Counted from the first letter of the stretch, positions 1 to 22,235 are shown. The stretch: 64,000 nt of DNA from GCF_056746865.1 NZ_CM163382.1; one strand, 5' to 3'. A program made the numbers and translations. Notes: generated by a model from the letters alone, not told the origin.

Positions 1-31
1 GCCCTGAAAGGCATGGTCATTCCGCATTGCA
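1..31 (-). other. Fragment homologous to an internal region of the beta-propeller paralogs; possible truncated fourth copy continuing left of the window
   Basis: 18-nt exact match (gaaaggcatggtcattcc, positions 7-24) to paralog B at about 3118-3135; minus-strand translation gives GMTMPF, a motif shared with paralogs B and C; the adjacent 32-119 is AT-rich non-coding. Confidence 0.3.
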
Positions 32-767
32 TTTTTAAAGTTTTTTATCCATTATTTATTCTGATTAATAATCAAAATTGAAATCCTGTCTTTGAAATGT
101 AATGGCAGTGCAACAATCACTATTCAGAACAGAAATCACCTTTCTCTGCCTGAACACAATTAATCAATATATCCCAGTGACCGTTCTCTAAGCGAGCTAC
201 ACCATAATACCCAGCCAGAACCAGGGTTTTTTCTGTACAACTGATATAACCAGTGCACATTTTTACCTCGCTGGGTAAATCTGGCTGAACAACATCATCC
301 CCGATTATTTGCCACACACCATAATCAGACGTTGCCCAGACACAATTTTCATACCATACCATTTGCCTGAACGGTAAGGTTAACTCCCCCCGATGAATCA
401 TCTTCCATTGATCTTTTCGACCTTTAAATACAGTACCGCTTTGCGCACCGATATAAACATAGCCATCCTGACCACAACAGATAGATTCAATGAGCATGTT
501 GCTGGGAAAATGAATTTGCCTCCATTCATCACCATCGAAATTCCAGACATCTCCTTTACCGCCTGCGGCATAGATATCATTTTCAGAGAAGCCATCCACA
601 CAACTAAAACCAGCAGCATCCAGGAATAGCATCTGTTCACGGATTGTTTTAATTTCATCTTGCGCAGGGAGATGGATACCTTTATTTAGTTTCTCCCAAT
701 TATTTCTATCTATCCTGCGAACAACACTACGTGCGGATCCTACAACATACAATCGATGGATTTGCCC

Positions 768-1673
768 CTATATTTCCAGACACCTGTTATCACTTAACCC
801 ATTACTGGCCCGCTGCCGTAGATATTCCCGTGGCGAGCGATAACCCAGTGCACTATGCGGATGCCATTCGTTATAATGCTCGAACGCCTCTGCAAGGTTC
901 TTTGCTGCCGTTAACCCGTCTGGTTTAGGCATGATACTGATGTAGTCACGCTTTATCGTTTTCACGAAGCTCTCTGCTATGCCGTTACTCTCCGGACTCC
1001 GCACCGCCGTGTTCTTCGGTTCAAGCCCCAACATCCGGGCAAACTGCCGTGTTTCATTAGCCCGGTAGCATGAACCATTATCCGTCAGCCACTCTACTGG
1101 AGACGCCGGAAGCTCGTTGCCGAAGCGGCGTTCCACCGCTCCCAGCATTACGTCCTGTACTGTTTCACTGTCGAAGCCGCCCGTAGTGACTGCCCAGTGC
1201 AGTGCCTCACGGTCACAGCAGTCCAGCGCGAACGTGACTCGCAGTTTTTCTCCGTTATCACAGCGGAACTCGAACCCGTCAGAGCACCATCGTTGATTGC
1301 TTTCTTTCACGGCCACTTTGCCAGTATGTGCCCGTTTCGATGGCGGTACAGCGGTTTTTCGCTCAAGCAACAGCGCATTCTGGCGCATGATCCGGTAAAC
1401 ACGTTTGGCATTGATCGCAGGCATACCATCAAGTTCGGCCTGTCTGCGAAGCAGCGCCCATACCCGACGATAACCATACGTGGGCAGCTCTCCGATAACA
1501 TGGTGTATACGGAGAAGCACATCCGTATCATCTGAGTGACGGCTGCGGCGACCATCTTTCCAGTCATCGGTTCGTCTGAGAATGACGTGCAACTGCGCAC
1601 GCGACACCCGGAGACAACGGCTGACTAAGCTTACTCCCCATCCCCGGGCAATAAGGGCGCGTGCGCTATCCAC
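768..1673 (-). CDS. insD: IS2 transposase OrfB (InsD)
   Basis: 301-aa ORF recognised as IS2 InsD (ends ...[31 protein letters not shown]); integrase catalytic core. Confidence 0.9.
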
Positions 1674-1996
1674 TTTTTTGCACGCCCGTATTCAACGGCT
1701 TCTTTAAGGAGTTCATTTTCCATCGTTTTTTTGCCGAGCAGGCGCTGGAGTTCTTTAATCTGCTTCATGGCAGCAGCAAGTTCAGAGGCAGGAACGACCT
1801 GCTCTCCTGCGGCCACAGCAGTAAGACTTCCCTCCTGGTATTGCTTGCGCCAGAGAAATAACTGGCTGGCTGCCACACCGTGTTGCCGGGCAACAAGGGA
1901 GACCGTCATTCCCGGTTCAAAACTCTGCTGAACAATAGCGATCTTTTCCTGTGTAGTACGCCGTCTGCGTTTCTCCGGTCCTAAGACATCAATCAT
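1631..1996 (-). CDS. insC: IS2 OrfA (InsC), helix-turn-helix protein
   Basis: ORF contains [56 protein letters not shown]; start placed at the internal Met matching the 121-aa InsC; overlaps insD as expected for a frameshift-fused transposase. Confidence 0.85.
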
Positions 1997-2497
1997 CTGC
2001 TCTCCAATGACTAGTCTAAAAACTAGTATTAAGACTATCACTTATTTAAGTGATATTGGTTGTCTGGAGATTCAGGGGGCCAGTCTAATCGACCACCAAT
2101 AGTCCGGGTATTGCTAATGGCAAATTCATATGGGATCGGTTCTTCAAGCCCTTCAAAACCACTACCTATAGCAAAAACCTCATTTTCCATTGTAACGCCC
2201 ACGTACTGACTGAATGGAATACTGGTTGTAGCCGAAAATATCTTGTCCATTCCTTCATAACCGCTGTATCCCCATTGCTCTCCTAATGGTTCATCAAAAA
2301 AAAAGGAAACAAAATTTTTTCTTGCCAGATGTTCTTCCATTACAGGGTCTATATCATCTCGCTTTTCTCGTGTAGTTATATAAATATAACCAGTGTCTCT
2401 TACTGCAACACCATTAATATAAAACCCTTTGAATATTTCATTGTACTCATCTTGAGTAATAATCATGTTTTTAATCTCATATTATTTTCATTTGTTT

Positions 2498-2812
2498 TTA
2501 CTGGAGTAAGAGTATGGACGGGATTGTTTTCCACCCATGCCCTTTCTGGAATCCCGGTGTCGCCGGAACATTCCCTTCACTGGTAGAGAAATACGAGCGA
2601 TCTTTCTGTGCCACCATCGACTTACAGATAAATACGGTAGCTGTTCCGTTCTGCAAATCCCGGGCATACGCCGTGTTGGAATAAGGCACAACGACCGGGC
2701 CTGTGGGCGGAGGAGGAGGGGACCAGCAGGGATCGGGAAATGCGCCAGCAGATTTCCCGTCAGACGCTCTGGAGCAGGCTTCCCGCCCGTTGATATAAAC
2801 GTTAGTTTCCAT
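2498..2812 (-). CDS. Hypothetical small ORF (104 aa, proline-rich) between paralog B and paralog A
   Basis: ORF ends 31 bp upstream of the paralog A start; its first codons (METNVY) lie in the conserved repeat downstream of B and C; the remainder is a GC-rich segment absent from the C-to-B spacer; coding status uncertain. Confidence 0.25.
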   Translation of the reverse strand: METNVYINGREACSRASDGKSAGAFPDPCWSPPPPPTGPVVVPYSNTAYARDLQNGTATVFICKSMVAQKDRSYFSTSEGNVPATPGFQKGHGWKTIPSILLLQ

Positions 2813-3365
2813 AATGTGCTATCCGTGTACCCACTTTCCTTTAAATTAACTGCTGGCCCGGGAGGCTATTCAAACGCCATTGAATCAAAGAGGACATTCC
2901 AGGCATTACCATCATAAATAGCAGCTCCTCTGGAGCCACAAACCATCATCACTGTCCCATCGGGGGAAACATCAATTCTTTTACTTAAAACGGCCACTTC
3001 AGGAGGGACGGGTTTATGTTTTGCATGCATGGCGAGCACCAGTTTGTCATCTTCCAGTACCCAGATGCCATAATCACTGGCACACCAGAGACGTCCATCA
3101 AACCATCCCATGTCGAGGAAAGGCATGGTCATTCCACCATGCGTAATTTGTGTCCATTGCTCATTGCGACCCTTCCATATAGCACCGTCAAAATCAGCAA
3201 TATAAACAAATCCGTCACCGGCACAGCAAACTGTGTACAGAAGTTTATTTGTCGGAAAAGGGAGTTTTTTCCATTGCTCACCATTAAAGTGATAAACGGT
3301 TCCCGTTCCACCCACTGCATACATATCTGACTCGGAAAAACCAGATAAATCCTGAAATAAGCTTC
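2796..3365. repeat. Direct repeat copy 1, about 570 bp: 3' half of paralog B plus about 70 bp of its 3' flank
   Basis: Near-identical to 3943..4512 (a handful of mismatches); repeat spacing 1147 bp. Confidence 0.85.
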
Positions 3366-3906
3366 TGGACATCGACTCAGCCTTCCGTTCCAGGAATCCA
3401 TCGGGAACAGGAATAGTTTGTGAAGCATCCAGCCAAACCTGATGATTAATTCGTTTATATATTCTTAACCCTCCCCCAATTGCATAGACACTTGTTCCTA
3501 CTCTGACTACCTTAATTATAGCTGTTCTCATGTCTGAGGATTTAGAAATAGGAATATCCAGATTATTTTCTCGTCCCTTGTATTCTCTGGTTTTGTAGCT
3601 TATGACTTCACAGTCGATATCAACTATAACTAATTCAGTTTGGGAAGGTGACCATCCAGCCGATATCGTTGGATAGCTCAAATTACCGAAAGACATCCCA
3701 AACACCCTGTTTTCAGGAGGGTTGTCAATAACTATTGATACCAGCTTGTGTTTAGGCATGTAATAGTCGTTGCCATATTCGATATGATTTTCATCAATTT
3801 TTTCAATTAATAATAAGCCAACGCGGCCATGTTCAAAGCCATATGTACAATCATATACTTCAAAATTTTTAAAGGTTTTATCCCAACGTTCTTGACTAAT
3901 AATCAT
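2866..3906 (-). CDS. Hypothetical protein, paralog B (346 aa) with beta-propeller-like repeats resembling BNR/Ycf48 or Kelch blades
   Basis: Intact 346-aa ORF; the C-terminal ~155-160 aa (from DLSGFSESDMYAVGG) are identical to paralog C, the N-terminal half about 60 percent identical; repeated blade-like motifs (YAIGGG...W, YAVGGTGTVYHFNGEQW, FDGAIWKGRNEQW, YDGNAW). Confidence 0.75.
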   Translation of the reverse strand: MIISQERWDKTFKNFEVYDCTYGFEHGRVGLLLIEKIDENHIEYGNDYYMPKHKLVSIVIDNPPENRVFGMSFGNLSYPTISAGWSPSQTELVIVDIDCEVISYKTREYKGRENNLDIPISKSSDMRTAIIKVVRVGTSVYAIGGGLRIYKRINHQVWLDASQTIPVPDGFLERKAESMSRSLFQDLSGFSESDMYAVGGTGTVYHFNGEQWKKLPFPTNKLLYTVCCAGDGFVYIADFDGAIWKGRNEQWTQITHGGMTMPFLDMGWFDGRLWCASDYGIWVLEDDKLVLAMHAKHKPVPPEVAVLSKRIDVSPDGTVMMVCGSRGAAIYDGNAWNVLFDSMAFE

Positions 3907-3942
3907 TTCATTTCCTTAGTTATCACAATTATCATCATAGCT

Positions 3943-4512
3943 ATCTATAAACGTTAGTTTCCATAATATGCTATCCGTGTGCCCACTTTCCTTTAAATTA
4001 ACTGCTGGCCCGGGAGGCTATTCAAACGCCATTGAATCAAAGAGGACATTCCAGGCATTACCATCATAAATAGCAGCTCCTCTGGAACCACAAACCATCA
4101 TCACGGTCCCATCGGGTGAAACATCAATTCTTTTACTTAAAACGGCCACTTCAGGAGGGACGGGTTTATGTTTTGCATGCATGGCAAGCACCAGTTTGTC
4201 ATCTTCCAGCACCCAGATGCCATAATCACTGGCACACCAGAGACGTCCATCAAACCATCCCATGTCGAGGAATGGCATGGTCATTCCACCATGCGTAATT
4301 TGTGTCCATTGTTCATTGCGACCCTTCCATATAGCACCGTCAAAATCAGCAATATAAACAAATCCGTCACCGGCACAGCAAACTGTGTACAGAAGTTTAT
4401 TTGTCGGAAAAGGGAGTTGTTTCCATTGCTCACCATTAAAGTGATAAACCGTTCCCGTTCCGCCCACTGCATACATATCCGATTCGGAAAAACCAGATAA
4501 ATCTCGGAATCG
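3943..4512. repeat. Direct repeat copy 2, about 570 bp: 3' half of paralog C plus its 3' flank
   Basis: Near-identical to 2796..3365. Confidence 0.85.
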
Positions 4513-5058
4513 ACTTCTGGTTATTGCTTCTACCTTCCTATCTAACAATCCATCGGGGACAGGCAGGTATGTAGAATGTTCCCGCCAAATTTGGTGATCA
4601 ACACGTTTGTATATTCTGAAACCACTACCGATAGCGTAAACACTGTTTTCAATTCGTACTACTTTTATTATAACGGAAAACATATCGATAGAACCTGGTA
4701 TGAGTATATTTATACTTTCTTCTACTCCTTTGTATACATCTTCTTTATAACTCATAACATCACGGTCCTGACTGACCATAACATATTCGGTCTGAGATGG
4801 GGGCCAACCAGAAGATATAGTCATCAGAGATATCCCTGTTGCGCGACGACCATATATGCGATATTTTTTGGAGAGGGTAAACGTAATGGAAATTAATCTC
4901 TTTTCAGGTGGGTAAAAAGGGTTTTCATATTCGGCATGCTCCTCATCTACCACTTCAATCAATGAAAGACCTACTTTTCCATGCTCGTAACCATAGGTGC
5001 AGTCATATATATAAAAGCCTTTGAGATATTTCTGATACGATTCTATATCTATGATCAT
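4018..5058 (-). CDS. Hypothetical protein, paralog C (346 aa) with beta-propeller-like repeats
   Basis: Intact 346-aa ORF; C-terminal half identical to paralog B, N-terminal half diverged; low GC. Confidence 0.75.
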   Translation of the reverse strand: MIIDIESYQKYLKGFYIYDCTYGYEHGKVGLSLIEVVDEEHAEYENPFYPPEKRLISITFTLSKKYRIYGRRATGISLMTISSGWPPSQTEYVMVSQDRDVMSYKEDVYKGVEESINILIPGSIDMFSVIIKVVRIENSVYAIGSGFRIYKRVDHQIWREHSTYLPVPDGLLDRKVEAITRSRFRDLSGFSESDMYAVGGTGTVYHFNGEQWKQLPFPTNKLLYTVCCAGDGFVYIADFDGAIWKGRNEQWTQITHGGMTMPFLDMGWFDGRLWCASDYGIWVLEDDKLVLAMHAKHKPVPPEVAVLSKRIDVSPDGTVMMVCGSRGAAIYDGNAWNVLFDSMAFE

Positions 5059-5083
5059 TTATCACCTCAAATATCTTCATCGT

Positions 5084-5383
5084 TTATAACACCCCCATCA
5101 CCTGCATTGATTTTTGCAGAGTTAAATCACCACAGGTATAAGCGTCTTGGTAAGCTTTATCCAGTTGCGCTTTCAAACAAGATTTATCACAACCGTACAT
5201 TAATGCAACCTCATCAATTACCATACATCTGGCATCTTTATAACTCATTTCTTTTCCAAAATGCTTTTCTTCTATTAGAGTGCCTGTAGCTGAGTGTAAT
5301 GCACCATGTGAACCAGTACGATTGTCTTTTCCTTCCAGACAAATTGTAGGCGCTTTGCCTTCGGTATATTCCCCCCCCAGCAC
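5084..5383 (-). CDS. Hypothetical small protein (99 aa), tightly coupled upstream of paralog C
   Basis: ORF ends 26 bp before the paralog C start; GTG start codon inferred; a run of 8 G on the coding strand sits at codons 3-5; no recognisable homology. Confidence 0.35.
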   Translation of the reverse strand: MLGGEYTEGKAPTICLEGKDNRTGSHGALHSATGTLIEEKHFGKEMSYKDARCMVIDEVALMYGCDKSCLKAQLDKAYQDAYTCGDLTLQKSMQVMGVL

Positions 5384-5751
5384 TTTCTTGTTGGATATTT
5401 GCTACGGGGCATTCTTTATATTAATTTTTCTTCCTTATGGAGTATCTCTGTTTGACACTTTAAAGTCTCTATGAGAATTATAAGATTTTTTTTAAAATAA
5501 TACGTTTTCAGATTTAGCAACAGGATTTTCACTCATACGATTAATATACGATATTTTAATCTCAAAAATATATTTGGCTGGTGAAGCTATCTGGGGTGTA
5601 TATTCACACCACATATATTATCAAAAGGCAGTTACGCTACCGCCATACCCTGATAAAACTCACCATCTGCACGAAACGGATTTTACGCTTTTTCTTCCGG
5701 CGAAATATCAAATTCTCAATTCAAATAATATCTATTGCGTTATATGACCTA

Positions 5752-7200
5752 TCACTCCCTCTCCGGCAGCACAATCACAAACCTTGTTCCTCGCGCATCT
5801 GACGTTACCGCAACTGTGCCTTTATGCGCGACAACAATCGATTTCACTATCGCCAGCCCAATGCCGCTACCTTCGCCTTTTCGCTGGCGGGAAGGATCAA
5901 CGCGGTAGAAACGGTCAAACAATCGCGGTAAGTGTTCGGGCGCAATGGGCGTACCGGGGTTTTCGACGGTAACTTGCACCTGATGATCGACCGCCTGGCA
6001 GCGTACTACAATAGCCTCTCCGGGTGGCGTATAACGCAGGGCATTAGAAAGCAGGTTGTTTAACGCCCGACGCAGCATCAGCGGATCGCCCGCAACCTGA
6101 CACTCGTCACCAACAAACCGCAACTCCACGCCGCGATCTTCCGCTAACGCCTCGAAAAAATCGAACACTTTGCCGACTTCATCCGCCAGGTTGAGCATTT
6201 TCTTTTCGGGGATTAACTGGTTGTTATCGGCCTGGGCGAGAAACAACATATCGCTGACCATTTTCGCCATTCGCGTCAGCTCTTCGAGATTAGAGTAGAG
6301 CACATCTTCCAGCTCCTTCTGGCTGCGTGACTGGCTGAGGGCGATTTCGGTTTGCGTTATGAGATTCGTAATTGGTGTACGAATTTCGTGAGCGATATCC
6401 GCTGAGAAATTGGACTGGCGAGTAAAGACATCCTCAATACGCTCGATCATATGGTTGAACGACAGTACCAGCTGTTCCAGCTCAATCGGCACGGTCTGCG
6501 GGTCAAGGCGAACGTCGAGATCTTTCGAGGTGATATTCTGGATTTGACGGCTGACGCTGCGGATCGGCGCGTGACCTTTATGTACCGCCAATAGCACGAT
6601 AAAGACGATCAGGATGCTGATGATCGATGCGGTCATAATAAGTTTATTCATCAAATCATTTATGTAATGAAGATGAAAATCGATCGAAAGCGCGATGTAG
6701 AGCGTATAAATCGGTTTGCCGTCCACCAACGGGCCAACCGGCAAGTTAATCATCCGCCAGTTGCTGTGTTCCATATGCCCGTGACCGTGGCCCGGCATCA
6801 TCATTGTCGGGCCGGAAAGGAGATACACCTCGCCGCCCCGCGCGTCTTTATCGGGTATGGCATCACGTGCAAACTCGCGGATATCGGGCGCACCGGGGGA
6901 GTGATATACCGTTTTACCGTGGCTATCTGCCAGGGAGATCAACACATTGGAATAACCACTGACAATATCTTCCAGCGTCATTAAGCGTCGGGCTTGCGTT
7001 TCGTCAGGGTGATTAAGTACCCGTTCAAGTGTGGCGCTAATTTCTTTTAAATCATTAATATCCTGCTCGGCAAAATGCACTTTTACCGAGTGGATCATTA
7101 TCCATGCAAAGGCGAAAAACGCCGCGATGGTGGCGAGGCTGATAAAAAAGGTCAGGCGGGTTGCCAGCGAAAACGGGCGCTGAAATGGCTTACTGACCAT
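5752..7200 (-). CDS. cusS: Copper/silver-sensing histidine kinase CusS
   Basis: Translation matches CusS ([16 protein letters not shown]...; periplasmic sensor, HAMP, HisKA and ATPase regions); start set at the internal Met of the 486-aa ORF. Confidence 0.92.
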
Positions 7201-7873
7201 CCGGCACCTCAAGCATGTAACCCACGCCGCGCACGGTTTGAATCAGCTTCGGCTCAAAGTCGTTGTCGATTTTGCCACGCAGCCGCTTCACCGCCACATC
7301 AATGGCGTTAGTGTCGCTGTCGAAATTCATGTCCCACACCTGCGAGGCGATAAGCGAGCGGGGCAGCACTTCGCCCTGATGGCGAAGGAAAAACTCCAGC
7401 AGAGTAAACTCTTTACTGGTCAGAGTGATGCGCGTACCGCTGCGGGTGACTTTGCGGCTGACGAGATCGACCATCAAATCGGCAACCTGAAACTGACTTT
7501 CGATAATCACCGCCGCCCCGCGCCGCAGTAATGTGCGCACCCGCGCCAGCAGTTCAGCAAAAGCGAATGGCTTCACCAGGTAGTCATCTGCCCCCAACTC
7601 CAGCCCCTTGACGCGATGTTCAATGGTGCCAAGCGCGGTAAGCAACAGAATCGGCATCCCTTTATTGGCGGAACGCAACATACGCACGATATCCCAGCCG
7701 TTCACGTCTGGCAGCATAATATCGAGGATTATCAGGTCATAATCACCGGTCATCGCCAGATGGTAGCCATTCAGCCCGTTGTCGGCCAAATCGACCACAA
7801 AACCGGCTTCGGTTAACCCTTTGGTCAAGTATTCTCCGGTTTTCTTTTCATCTTCGACAATCAACAGTTTCAT
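7190..7873 (-). CDS. cusR: Copper-responsive response regulator CusR (OmpR family)
   Basis: 227-aa [23 protein letters not shown]...; receiver plus winged-helix domains; overlaps the cusS start by 11 bp. Confidence 0.95.
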
Positions 7874-19684: not shown

Positions 19685-20019
19685 TTATGTTGGCGTTTTC
19701 TATTCAGTATAGAAGTCGGAGCGGCTGGGCGAGATGCGGAAGTTCTGGAATGCTTCTTTTTTTTGGTGATGGTGAACTGATTGTGACTGAAGAAGTTTGG
19801 CTACTTTTGCAATGTGACAAGTTATGGCAGAGCTGGCTGGTGGCGAAGAATTTTGACGATTGAGGCATGCAGAAAAATACGGGTTCAGCTTCAGTTGATC
19901 AAATGAGGAGTGAGAAGTCCGAAACAGGACTCACTGTATAAATAAACAGCTATTTTGCTGAAGAAGGGTAAGATAACGGCGGGTGCCTGAAGCTTTCCGG
20001 TTTCAGGTTTACTCTGAGG

Positions 20020-20085
20020 TCTGGAAAGATGAAGCCCCAGGACGATATTTCTATCAACCCTGGGGCTGCCACTCCAAACCCAAAC
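20020..20085 (-). ncRNA. sokE: Putative SokE antisense RNA region
   Basis: Placed by analogy with hok/sok loci, where Sok is antisense to the mok translation-initiation region; no promoter or terminator was resolved, so boundaries are approximate. Confidence 0.3.
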
Positions 20086-20217
20086 AATTTGGATGGTAGT
20101 CCCTTCTTCGCATGGAGGCAATATAAACATGCTGACGAAATATGCCCTTGTGGCTGTCATAGTGCTGTGTTTAACGGTGCTGGGATTTACGCTTCTGGTC
20201 GGAGACTCGCTGTGTGA
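20029..20217 (+). CDS. mokE: MokE, overlapping reading frame needed for hok translation
   Basis: 62-aa ORF starting ATGAAGCCCCAGG upstream of hokE and overlapping it in another frame, as is typical for mok. Confidence 0.55.
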
Positions 20218-20281
20218 GTTTACGGTGAAGGAACGTAATATTGAGTTTAAGGCTGTTCTCGCTTACGAACCGAAGAAGTAG
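20129..20281 (+). CDS. hokE: Hok-family toxin HokE (50 aa), copy 1
   Basis: [50 protein letters not shown], Hok/Gef family. Confidence 0.9.
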
Positions 20282-20302
20282 CCGTTGTGCGGGGAGTAAT
20301 CC

Positions 20303-21641
20303 CATAAGCGCTAACTTAAGGGTTGTGGTATTACGCCTGATATGATTTAACGTGCCGATGAATTACTCTCACGATAACTGGTCAGCAATTCTGGCCCATA
20401 TTGGTAAGCCCGAAGAACTGGATACTTCGGCACGTAATGCCGGGGCTCTAACCCGCCGCCGCGAAATTCGTGATGCTGCAACTCTGCTACGTCTGGGGCT
20501 GGCTTACGGCCCCGGGGGGATGTCATTACGTGAAGTCACTGCATGGGCTCAGCTCCATGACGTTGCAACATTATCTGACGTGGCTCTCCTGAAGCGGCTG
20601 CGGAATGCCGCCGACTGGTTTGGCATACTTGCCGCACAAACACTTGCTGTACGCGCCGCAGTTACGGGTTGTACAAGCGGAAAGAGATTGCGTCTTGTCG
20701 ATGGAACAGCAATCAGTGCGCCCGGGGGCGGCAGCGCTGAATGGCGACTACATATGGGATATGATCCTCATACCTGTCAGTTCACTGATTTTGAGCTAAC
20801 CGACAGCAGAGACGCTGAACGGCTGGACCGATTTGCGCAAACGGCAGACGAGATACGCATTGCTGACCGGGGATTCGGTTCGCGTCCCGAATGTATCCGC
20901 TCACTTGCTTTTGGAGAAGCTGATTATATCGTCCGGGTTCACTGGCGAGGATTGCGCTGGTTAACTGCAGAAGGAATGCGCTTTGACATGATGGGTTTTC
21001 TGCGCGGGCTGGATTGCGGTAAGAACGGTGAAACCACTGTAATGATAGGCAATTCAGGTAATAAAAAAGCCGGAGCTCCTTTTCCGGCACGTCTCATTGC
21101 CGTATCACTTCCTCCCGAAAAAGCATTAATCAGTAAAACCCGACTGCTCAGCGAGAATCGTCGAAAAGGACGAGTAGTTCAGGCGGAAACGCTGGAAGCA
21201 GCGGGCCATGTGCTATTGCTAACATCATTACCGGAAGATGAATATTCAGCAGAGCAAGTGGCTGATTGTTACCGTCTGCGATGGCAAATTGAACTGGCTT
21301 TTAAGCGGCTCAAAAGTTTGCTGCACCTGGATGCTTTGCGTGCAAAGGAACCTGAACTCGCGAAAGCGTGGATATTTGCTAATCTACTCGCCGCATTTTT
21401 AATTGACGACATAATCCAGCCATCGCTGGATTTCCCCCCCAGAAGTGCCGGATCCGAAAAGAAGAACTAACTCGTTGTGGAGAATAACAAAAATGGTCAT
21501 CTGGAGCTTACAGGTGGCCATTCGTGGGACAGTATCCCTGACAGCCTACAAAACGCAATTGAAGAACGCGAGGCATCGTCTTAACGAGGCACCGAGGCGT
21601 CGCATTCTTCAGATGGTTCAACCCTTAAGTTAGCGCTTATG
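20303..21641 (+). mobile_element. IS186 insertion sequence with a 10-bp target site duplication (ggagtaatcc)
   Basis: Terminal inverted repeats cataagcgctaacttaagggttg (20303-) and caacccttaagttagcgcttatg (-21641); flanked by ggagtaatcc at 20293-20302 and 21642-21651; target is the GC-rich palindrome gcggggagtaatccccgc. Confidence 0.9.
20352..21470 (+). CDS. insL: IS186 (IS4-family) transposase
   Basis: 372-aa ORF MPMNYSHDNWSAILAHIGKPEELDTSARNAGALTRRREIRDAATLLRLGLAYGPGGMSLREV... Confidence 0.93.
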   Translation: MPMNYSHDNWSAILAHIGKPEELDTSARNAGALTRRREIRDAATLLRLGLAYGPGGMSLREVTAWAQLHDVATLSDVALLKRLRNAADWFGILAAQTLAVRAAVTGCTSGKRLRLVDGTAISAPGGGSAEWRLHMGYDPHTCQFTDFELTDSRDAERLDRFAQTADEIRIADRGFGSRPECIRSLAFGEADYIVRVHWRGLRWLTAEGMRFDMMGFLRGLDCGKNGETTVMIGNSGNKKAGAPFPARLIAVSLPPEKALISKTRLLSENRRKGRVVQAETLEAAGHVLLLTSLPEDEYSAEQVADCYRLRWQIELAFKRLKSLLHLDALRAKEPELAKAWIFANLLAAFLIDDIIQPSLDFPPRSAGSEKKN

Positions 21642-21765
21642 GGAGTAATCCCCGCATATCCGGTTGTCAGGTCAGGGTGGTAAGGCACCTGCTTTACACT
21701 TTCGCCCGCGGTCAGCAATGGCTGCGGGCGATTTCGTTTTACGAACAATAACGAGCGTTGCCAAC

Positions 21766-22235
21766 AGAAGTCCGAAACAGGACTCGCTGTATAAATAAAC
21801 AGCTATTTTGATAAGGAAGGGTAAGATAACGGCGGGTGCCTGAAGCTTTCCGGTTTCAGGTTTACTCTGAGGTCTGGAAAGATGAAGCCCCAGGAGATAT
21901 TTCTATCAACCCTGGGGCTGCCACTCCAAACCAGACAATTTGGATGGTAGTCCCTTCTTCGCATGGAGGCAATATAAACATGCTGACGAAATATGCCCTT
22001 GTGGCAGTCATAGTGCTGTGTTTAACGGTGCTGGGATTTACGCTTCTGGTCGGAGACTCGCTGTGTGAGTTTACGGTGAAGGAACGTAATATTGAGTTTA
22101 AGGCTGTTCTCGCTTACGAACCGAAGAAGTAGCCGTTGTGCGGGGAGTAATCCCCGCATATCCGGTTGTCAGGTCAGGGTGGTAAGGCACCTGCTTTACA
22201 CTTTCGCCCGCGGTCAGTGATGGCTGCGGGCGAAT
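21766..22235. repeat. hokE locus repeat unit, copy 2 (complete unit between IS186 and entD)
   Basis: Matches copy 1 (19913..20302 plus 21642..21765) apart from a few substitutions and two 1-nt deletions in the mok region; contains an intact copy of the IS186 target palindrome at about 22139-22156. Confidence 0.85.
21980..22132 (+). CDS. hokE: Hok-family toxin HokE, copy 2 (50-aa frame intact; upstream mok frame altered)
   Basis: Identical Hok peptide; in this copy two 1-nt deletions truncate mok to about 22 codons and open an upstream-extended ORF (21836..22132) in the hok frame. Confidence 0.75.

Follow-up and report, generated by a model that had tools for sequence, protein, structure and literature searches.

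Tse7-Tsi7 of Pseudomonas aeruginosa represents the described type of antibacterial system to which the genes considered here are most readily compared. Tse7, a protein with DUF4150 and Tox-GHH2 domains encoded in the PA0095-PA0101 region, is an antibacterial DNase that depends on VgrG1b; its immunity protein is encoded by the gene that follows, tsi7 (PMC4067218; PMC10281587; PMC11872809). Tsi7 is reported to align structurally, over residues 2-340, with a protein that has a further likeness to a glycoside-hydrolase domain of propeller type (PMC11872809). Islets of orphan immunity genes of type VI secretion systems (T6SS) are an established concept as well (PMC7400221; bioRxiv 10.1101/471110; PMC10539506). 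In the catalogue of Zhang et al. (2012), the immunity entry for Tox-GHH2 is given as "-" (PMC3482391). Here we describe three paralogous genes, named immA, immB and immC, at the left end of a 64,000-nucleotide stretch of Escherichia coli DNA (GCF_056746865.1, NZ_CM163382.1; hereafter the window). Sequence comparison and gene context suggest, with a probability of roughly 85%, that this locus is the decayed 3' end of a T6SS effector-immunity array and that the three paralogs are orphan immunity genes of a known system type. A preliminary description of the same DNA had presented it as a candidate undescribed system. This label does not hold, since the type is already described as Tse7/Tsi7 and orphan immunity islets are established (PMC7400221).

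The three paralogs are co-oriented on the minus strand and immA is split by IS2, as had been proposed; the open reading frames (ORFs) and alignment to an allele free of the insertion sequence (IS) confirmed both points, together with the coordinates (Table 1). The boundaries of IS2 and its 5-6 bp target duplication were set by the same alignment, and window positions 1-756 and 2087-2900 are each 100% identical to strain 118UI. The intact immA allele of 118UI encodes 336 aa, so that the length of about 346 aa once given for all three genes applies to immB and immC. Between ImmB and ImmC, residues 1-185 show 89 differences (52% identity), whereas residues 186-346 show a single difference (K/Q214; 99% identity). 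The mosaic structure noted earlier is thus real, with C-terminal halves that are not entirely identical and N-terminal halves less similar than the 60% first estimated. ImmA is more diverged, as had been stated, with about 30% identity to both ImmB and ImmC, and its 88%-like counterpart sits after intact effector 1 in Citrobacter freundii (locus L003). Spacers of conserved sequence follow the stop codons of immB and immC, and both continue into ATGGAAACTAACGTTTAT. They are contained in a 300-nt direct repeat (2794-3093 and 3946-4245; 98% identical). Terminator-like hairpins occur at matching positions within immB and immC (2921-2939 and 4073-4091 on the minus strand; 3123-3142 and 4275-4294 on the plus strand). 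They are probably chance consensus matches that were copied with the duplicated 3' block.

Table 1. Features of the candidate orphan immunity locus and its surroundings, with positions counted from the first letter of the window.
Feature	Position	Strand	Remarks
Low-GC island	first 5.7 kb of window		GC 35-46% vs ~52-55% in flank (GC profile)
immA 3' part, C-terminal ~210 codons	120..756	-	ORF 120..752; cut from 5' part by IS2
IS2-type (IS3 family) element inside immA	757..2086	-	transposase orfA 2041..1631, orfB 1673..768
immA 5' part, N-terminal ~127 codons	2087..2466	-	ORF 2038..2466 runs into the IS
Effector A remnant	2498..2812	-	codons 1-91 of Tox-PAAR-like effector (2812..2540) and last ~30-60 nt of gene, joined out of frame
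Conserved spacer, 53 nt, copy 1	2813..2865	-	immunity stop codon to next effector start; nearly identical to copy 2
immB, intact candidate orphan immunity gene, 346 aa	2866..3906	-	N-half 76% identical to E. whittamii imm2
Effector B remnant	3916..3964	-	first 18-19 nt (ATGGAAACTAACGTTTAT, M-E-T-N-V-Y) and last ~30 nt; ~1.55-kb deletion
Conserved spacer, 53 nt, copy 2	3965..4017	-	from sequence comparison
immC, intact candidate orphan immunity gene, 346 aa	4018..5058	-	N-half 71% identical to E. whittamii imm1
Effector C remnant	5084..5439	-	last ~110 codons of Tox-GHH2 domain; frameshift in G8 run (5371..5378)
Terminator-like hairpin 3' of cusS	5627..5644	-	AT-rich island/core junction between 5440 and hairpin

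Remnants of effector genes were identified upstream of all three paralogs. Tox-GHH2 is a DNase toxin of the HNH/EndoVII fold. The ORF at 2498..2812 matches Pfam PF13665 (Tox-PAAR-like; E=7e-11), covering the first 60% of that profile (model positions 4-63 of 108), and shares 88-90% identity with residues 1-91 of C. freundii effectors (tblastn). In blastn comparison, nt 1-272 of this remnant correspond to effector nt 1-272, and nt 272-299 correspond to effector nt 1522-1549 of 1581, indicating an internal deletion of ~1.25 kb. The ORF at 5084..5383 matches PF15635 (Tox-GHH2; E=3.7e-6) over model positions 31-120 of 122, the C-terminal three quarters. Compared by tblastn with C. freundii effector 3, whose C-part has 328 aa, this effector C remnant (5439..5111) matches C-part residues 204-314 at 67-73% identity in two frames. 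It starts 28 residues past the GHH motif (residue 176 of that C-part), and the catalytic motif and everything upstream are gone. The RefSeq names of both ORFs, Tox-PAAR-like and Tox-GHH2, agree with these assignments. For the remnant before immB, alignment with E. whittamii (L005) places window 5432..3946 at L005 4655..6154 and window 3945..2805 at L005 7705..8849.

Two of the three genes had been described as preceded by different small ORFs, which were regarded as possible partners. The two ORFs exist, and they differ because one stems from the 5' end and the other from the 3' end of effector genes of one kind; immB is preceded by an effector remnant too, of which the start measures 18-19 nt. 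All are pseudogene stumps of effectors, not interaction partners. The s[AGP]HH catalytic motif of a functional effector is missing from the locus, since all three effectors are truncated or deleted. As judged from these alignments, the locus is laid out as three consecutive units, Δeffector–immC, Δeffector–immB and Δeffector–immA::IS2.

Homologs of the three paralogs were found beside live effectors in other species. In Citrobacter, E. whittamii, Kluyvera, Azoarcus, Massilia and others, the homologs begin a few bases 3' of intact PAAR-like/Tox-GHH2 effectors. Among the homolog ORFs with visible upstream DNA, 20 of 40 lie directly after a Tox-GHH2 effector, intact or partial (16 of 25 loci), and most of the others belong to toxin-less tandem arrays of up to 7 copies. 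For example, C. freundii (L003) carries four tandem units of a PAAR-like/Tox-GHH2 effector and a family member, followed by a HEAT-repeat gene. In E. whittamii (L005), genes for VgrG, an OB-fold protein, DUF2169 and a thiolase-like protein precede two intact units. Citrobacter koseri (L164) has a full T6SS cluster with TssE, VipB, VipA, Hcp, VgrG, DUF6484, DUF2169, the units and HEAT, and Azoarcus (L162) shows the same gene order. In all four loci, the homologs belong to vgrG-linked clusters. One homolog is fused to a SUKH immunity domain, and some family members bear ankyrin-annotated tails, as polyimmunity proteins do. The neighbourhood survey proposed in the preliminary description thus revealed linkage to T6SS, and its view of the locus as a polymorphic toxin-immunity array with an immunity-like rather than toxin role is borne out by the effector adjacency and the SUKH fusion.

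The family gene is always co-oriented with the effector and tightly coupled to it, and PAAR-like effectors of this cluster type need accessory proteins (PMC11883445; PMC7714669). The propeller could accordingly be a chaperone, adaptor or secretion co-factor of the effector that travels with the toxin gene. This explanation is very unlikely, because the known adaptor genes (DUF2169, thiolase-like) lie upstream of the effector, and the system that has been tested has its immunity gene downstream of the effector. An accessory factor would also not persist, or multiply to toxin-less arrays of up to 7 copies, after effector loss, and the SUKH fusion suits immunity, not chaperoning.

Some of the homolog loci show further features. 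In Roseateles depolymerans (L025, 6896-15160), seven family members lie in tandem with no Tox-GHH2 or PAAR-like gene in 15 kb, an array much larger than that of E. coli. In Azoarcus sp. L1K30 (L162, 1630-3743), a second PAAR-like effector and a TsiV (PF11876) gene lie just upstream of the VgrG gene that precedes the Tox-GHH2 unit, so that a single vgrG locus holds two PAAR-like effectors with different toxin and immunity types. The effectors of Parazoarcus, Azoarcus and Paracidovorax are split after a conserved "...THNHG" by one in-frame stop codon (TAA or TGA), with an ATG 1-4 codons further on (L012, 5741-5806; L015, 5729-5794; L014, 4291-4356; L162, 8372-9985). The enterobacterial effectors are continuous at this position. 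The split reflects either fission of the gene where the PAAR and toxin domains meet or a site of read-through.

The array of immB and immC was retrieved from 152 of 5426 complete E. coli genomes (2.8%), including strain 042, and both genes are annotated as intact in every one. An intact effector of the PAAR-like/Tox-GHH2 type was found in none of the 5426 genomes, in which only the two stumps occur, in 166 genomes. The paralogs thus form an array in which immB and immC, and immA as well where the IS is absent, are intact beside dead effectors, with type-matched live pairs in E. whittamii. IS2 within immA is specific to this strain, as no other complete E. coli genome has an IS there. In strain SCU-105 (L002, 7932-10308), a different IS3-family element lies inside immC. 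The island has therefore been struck by IS at least twice independently.

The death of all three effectors and the IS insertions in immA and in immC of SCU-105 might also be taken to mean that the locus is a genomic fossil, in which immunity descendants without function in E. coli hitch-hike in a clonal lineage and decay. The lack of an outstanding promoter signal would fit this explanation, and so would the near-invariance of the island across the 152 genomes, which provides little evidence of selection within E. coli. We nevertheless consider a fossil unlikely. Genes immB and immC keep full 346-codon frames in the 152 genomes despite three independent large deletions in the adjoining effectors. 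Their 3' halves differ by 12 substitutions, of which 11 are synonymous and 1 non-synonymous (dS 0.115, dN 0.0026, dN/dS 0.023), and type-matched E. coli/E. whittamii pairs give dN/dS values of 0.06-0.14. The overall range of 0.02-0.15 comes from crude pairwise Nei-Gojobori estimates, which cover the pairs as wholes rather than the E. coli branch. These low ratios, together with the intact frames, indicate that the immunity genes are under purifying selection that retains them. Where orphan immunity is useful, immunity genes are expected to be kept selectively once the toxin is lost (PMC7400221).

Genomic comparison also revealed how variation is distributed within the effector-immunity units. 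Between units 1 and 2 of E. whittamii, DNA identity is 93-100% over the first 600 nt of the effector, 55-77% in the toxin C-terminus, 45-70% in the immunity N-half and 92-100% in the immunity C-half. The window shows the same block pattern, its conserved block running from the immunity C-half through the 53-nt spacer into the start of the effector. On these comparisons, the variable cassette is the toxin C-terminus plus the immunity N-half, contiguous and placed between two conserved blocks. Variation in the N-terminal half had been noted as the reverse of the Rhs/CDI arrangement. The N-half is indeed the variable one, and the reversed polarity has a simple explanation, since on the DNA this half adjoins the variable C-terminus of the toxin, and the two form one swap cassette. 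The N-halves pair by type across species (E. coli ImmC with E. whittamii Imm1, 71%; E. coli ImmB with E. whittamii Imm2, 76%), with cross-type identities of 50-56%. The C-halves are 93-99% identical in all combinations and are closest within a genome. In type-matched E. coli/E. whittamii genes, the N-half has a dS of 1.1-1.4 and the C-half one of 0.3-0.5. The halves therefore differ in age, direct evidence that a recombination boundary lies inside the immunity gene. Across the family, mean identity is 25% in the N-half and 49% in the C-half, and the near-invariant residues are all at positions 152-336.

The fold of these proteins was examined by profile search and structure prediction. No match was found for ImmA, ImmB or ImmC in NCBIfam, PADLOC (0 families) or PDB sequences. 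Pfam gave no significant match, the best being Tectonin (E=0.34), and none of the Imm, SUKH or SuFu immunity families of Pfam matched. RefSeq labels the paralogs "WD40/YVTN/BNR-like repeat-containing protein". A word-indexed search retrieved 85-117 homolog clusters at 90% identity, and an exhaustive profile search of 50% identity clusters retrieved 758 at E<=1e-30 and 4913 at E<=1e-10; the homologs are mostly single-domain proteins of 320-350 aa. The AlphaFold2 model of ImmC, built on a 28-sequence alignment, has a pLDDT of 92 and a pTM of 0.91 and is all-β, with about 28 strands grouped in fours. The proteins are thus confidently predicted to be 7-bladed β-propellers that span the whole chain, and Foldseek supports a propeller. 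Variable N-half and conserved C-half would then be blades of one domain. About five blade-like sequence repeats are visible (residues 139-160, 194-215, 234-253, 272-291 and 320-341), as had been reported for the C-terminal half; one of them lies within the variable half, and the predicted propeller takes in the entire chain. Neighbours in AFDB50 are uncharacterised members of the same family (TM 0.8-0.98), including proteins of E. coli UMN026 and 042, and no solved immunity protein was found among the structural neighbours. Several giant proteins of 2000-6700 aa (P0099, P0112, P0117, P0143, P0159, P0184 and P0187) gave 14-43 repeated matches each, at profile positions ~172-250 only, so the blade motif of the conserved C-half is shared with large repeat proteins.

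The RefSeq name and the generic propellers among the structural neighbours could suggest a housekeeping β-propeller, such as a sialidase/BNR enzyme, a Ycf48-like or Kelch protein or a WD40 scaffold. This is scarcely credible, as no profile matches such families and the PDB neighbours share only 6-15% identity. The genes also occur in just 2.8% of complete E. coli genomes, on a low-GC island and in a toxin-linked context. A novel system for sensing or defence, based on a variable β-propeller and directed for example against phages, would match the low-GC island, the tandem diversified paralogs and the missing Pfam annotation. It is highly improbable given the empty PADLOC search and the context of the family in other genomes, which is T6SS and not phage defence; no enzymatic or effector gene is associated except the T6SS toxin remnants.

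Taken as a decayed effector-immunity array, the locus may have had the following history. The ancestral array would have consisted of tandem units, each with a PAAR-like/Tox-GHH2 DNase effector and a ~340-aa β-propeller immunity gene, as are still intact in E. whittamii and Citrobacter. It presumably settled between nfrB and cusS in a minority E. coli lineage, where the effectors were lost, C by 5' truncation and frameshift, B by the ~1.55-kb deletion and A by the ~1.25-kb deletion. The three immunity genes retained full frames, with immA struck later by IS2 in this strain. In the cytoplasm, the propeller may bind the Tox-GHH2 nuclease domain injected by the T6SS of a competitor and so block DNA cleavage. 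The variable N-terminal blades (residues 1-185) would decide which toxin allele is recognised, and the conserved C-terminal blades would complete the fold. The DNA of these C-terminal blades could serve as one homology arm for recombination, the other arm being the conserved spacer and the PAAR-like 5' region, and recombination between the arms would exchange the cassette of toxin C-terminus and immunity N-half. The E. coli lineage would thereby gain protection from T6SS attack by relatives with matching toxins. More tentatively, the genes may represent an unnamed and widespread class of β-propeller nuclease immunity proteins, in which an exchangeable N-blade specificity module is swapped together with the toxin tip and the C-blade scaffold is homogenised within arrays. 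In the same proposal, the island lineage (042, UMN026-like) would be pre-armed in the gut against at least 2-3 Tox-GHH2 alleles of Citrobacter, Salmonella or E. whittamii.

Several results weigh against this interpretation. No vgrG or any other T6SS gene is present in the 64-kb window. A promoter scan of the orphan genes gave 5 promoter-like sites, with 13.7 expected by chance, and none was convincing. No P. aeruginosa protein appeared in two profile searches (word-indexed set) or among the top 50 AFDB50 neighbours, so these searches provided no link to Tsi7/PA0100. The dN/dS check on the N-halves, suggested in the preliminary description, was carried out and gave purifying selection; at this coarse pairwise level, nothing pointed to positive selection. 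In 17 pairs, toxin divergence correlates with the divergence of the N-half and of the C-half alike (both ~0.4-0.5, confounded by phylogeny), so the argument for specificity in the N-half rests mainly on the close comparisons. Exact probing of metagenome contigs with a published PA0099-deletion primer yielded 120 matches that arose by chance; in none of them were the other primers, or a match to an effector or immunity hidden Markov model, present.

The paralogs lie directly downstream of cusS (5752..7212) on the minus strand, within an island whose GC minimum of 35% is reached at 5000-5750. Comparison of related E. coli strains showed that the site of the island is fixed between nfrB and cusS. 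Outside the island, the window consists of E. coli core genome (cusRCFBA, pheP, ent/fep, ahpCF, cit and dpiAB). Neither an integrase nor a recombinase was seen near the island, where IS2 and ISEc1 transposases are the only such genes. The terminator scan was uninformative, and TRF found no tandem repeats. In related strains such as 118UI (L001, 3466-8994), the region from immA to nfrB, past the left edge of the window, contains a SUKH-3 gene, several small hypothetical genes and two ISEc1 (ISAs1-family) elements. This region looks like further orphan-immunity content of the island. Elsewhere in the window (19913-22154), two hokE copies on the plus strand (20093..20281 and 21836..22132) lie on either side of an IS186-type transposase ORF (20352..21470), and direct repeats at 19913-20303 and 21766-22154 are 97-99% identical. 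In strain 118UI, no IS separates the two hokE copies, which are spaced 502 bp apart.

These findings leave the known picture of T6SS effector-immunity biology as it is. If the proposed function is correct, they would assign a role to a family annotated only as "WD40/YVTN/BNR-like repeat" or "hypothetical", with at least 758 clusters (50% identity, E<=1e-30), and would supply the Tox-GHH2 immunity entry that the polymorphic-toxin catalogue leaves empty. They would put on record an islet of orphan immunity genes in an E. coli lineage of clinical relevance and provide a clean natural example of a toxin-immunity swap boundary that falls within the immunity gene, from which the seat of specificity can be predicted. 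In the literature reached, we found no name or profile for the family, no description of it as a large β-propeller family and no cassette boundary placed inside an immunity gene.

The locus can be compared with several known systems. Colicin DNases are HNH-type, and their Im immunity proteins act by "dual recognition", in which a conserved part provides basal binding and a variable part provides allele specificity. This may serve as a working analogy for the conserved and variable halves of the propeller family, although Im proteins are helical and of ~85 aa, unlike the ~340-aa β-propeller here. TseV-TsiV of Salmonella bongori SPI-22, with VRR-Nuc toxins and DUF3396 immunities, also has a PAAR-like carrier, a vgrG/DUF2169 context and duplicated immunity genes by the effector (PMC9635880), and a PAAR-like and TsiV pair adjoins the Tox-GHH2 unit in Azoarcus. 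The two systems differ in toxin fold and in immunity family. Rhs/CDI orphan cassettes and polyimmunity loci (Zhang et al., 2012) likewise combine a conserved N-terminal delivery part with a variable C-terminal toxin and immunity cassette, contain displaced orphan toxin-tip fragments followed by immunity genes, and owe their diversity to recombination (PMC3482391). Unlike in those loci, the delivery module here is PAAR-like rather than made of Rhs/FHA repeats, and the downstream cassette boundary lies inside the immunity gene, so that only the N-half is swapped. Orphan T6SS immunity islets and AID clusters (SAIDI-1 of S. Typhi, Bacteroidales AID, orphan Rhs immunities of Serratia) are also immunity arrays without functional cognate toxins in the genome. 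They too have homologs beside live toxins in other species that share the habitat, and their presumed role is protection from non-self attack. In contrast to these, the array here is homogeneous, with three paralogs of one family, and appears to come from in-situ decay with recognisable toxin stumps rather than from unrelated immunity genes assembled on a mobile element. Compared to Tse7-Tsi7 (PA0099-PA0100), the units here are tandem, and their enterobacterial effectors, at 526-554 aa, exceed the 315-386 aa reported for homologs of Tse7; those of E. coli are dead, with no linked vgrG. The likeness lies in the effector, with a DUF4150/Tox-PAAR-like N-terminus and a Tox-GHH2 C-terminus, in the cluster order at the homologs' loci (VgrG, OB-fold, DUF2169, thiolase-like, effector, immunity and HEAT-repeat protein), and in an immunity gene of ~340 aa directly downstream of the effector.

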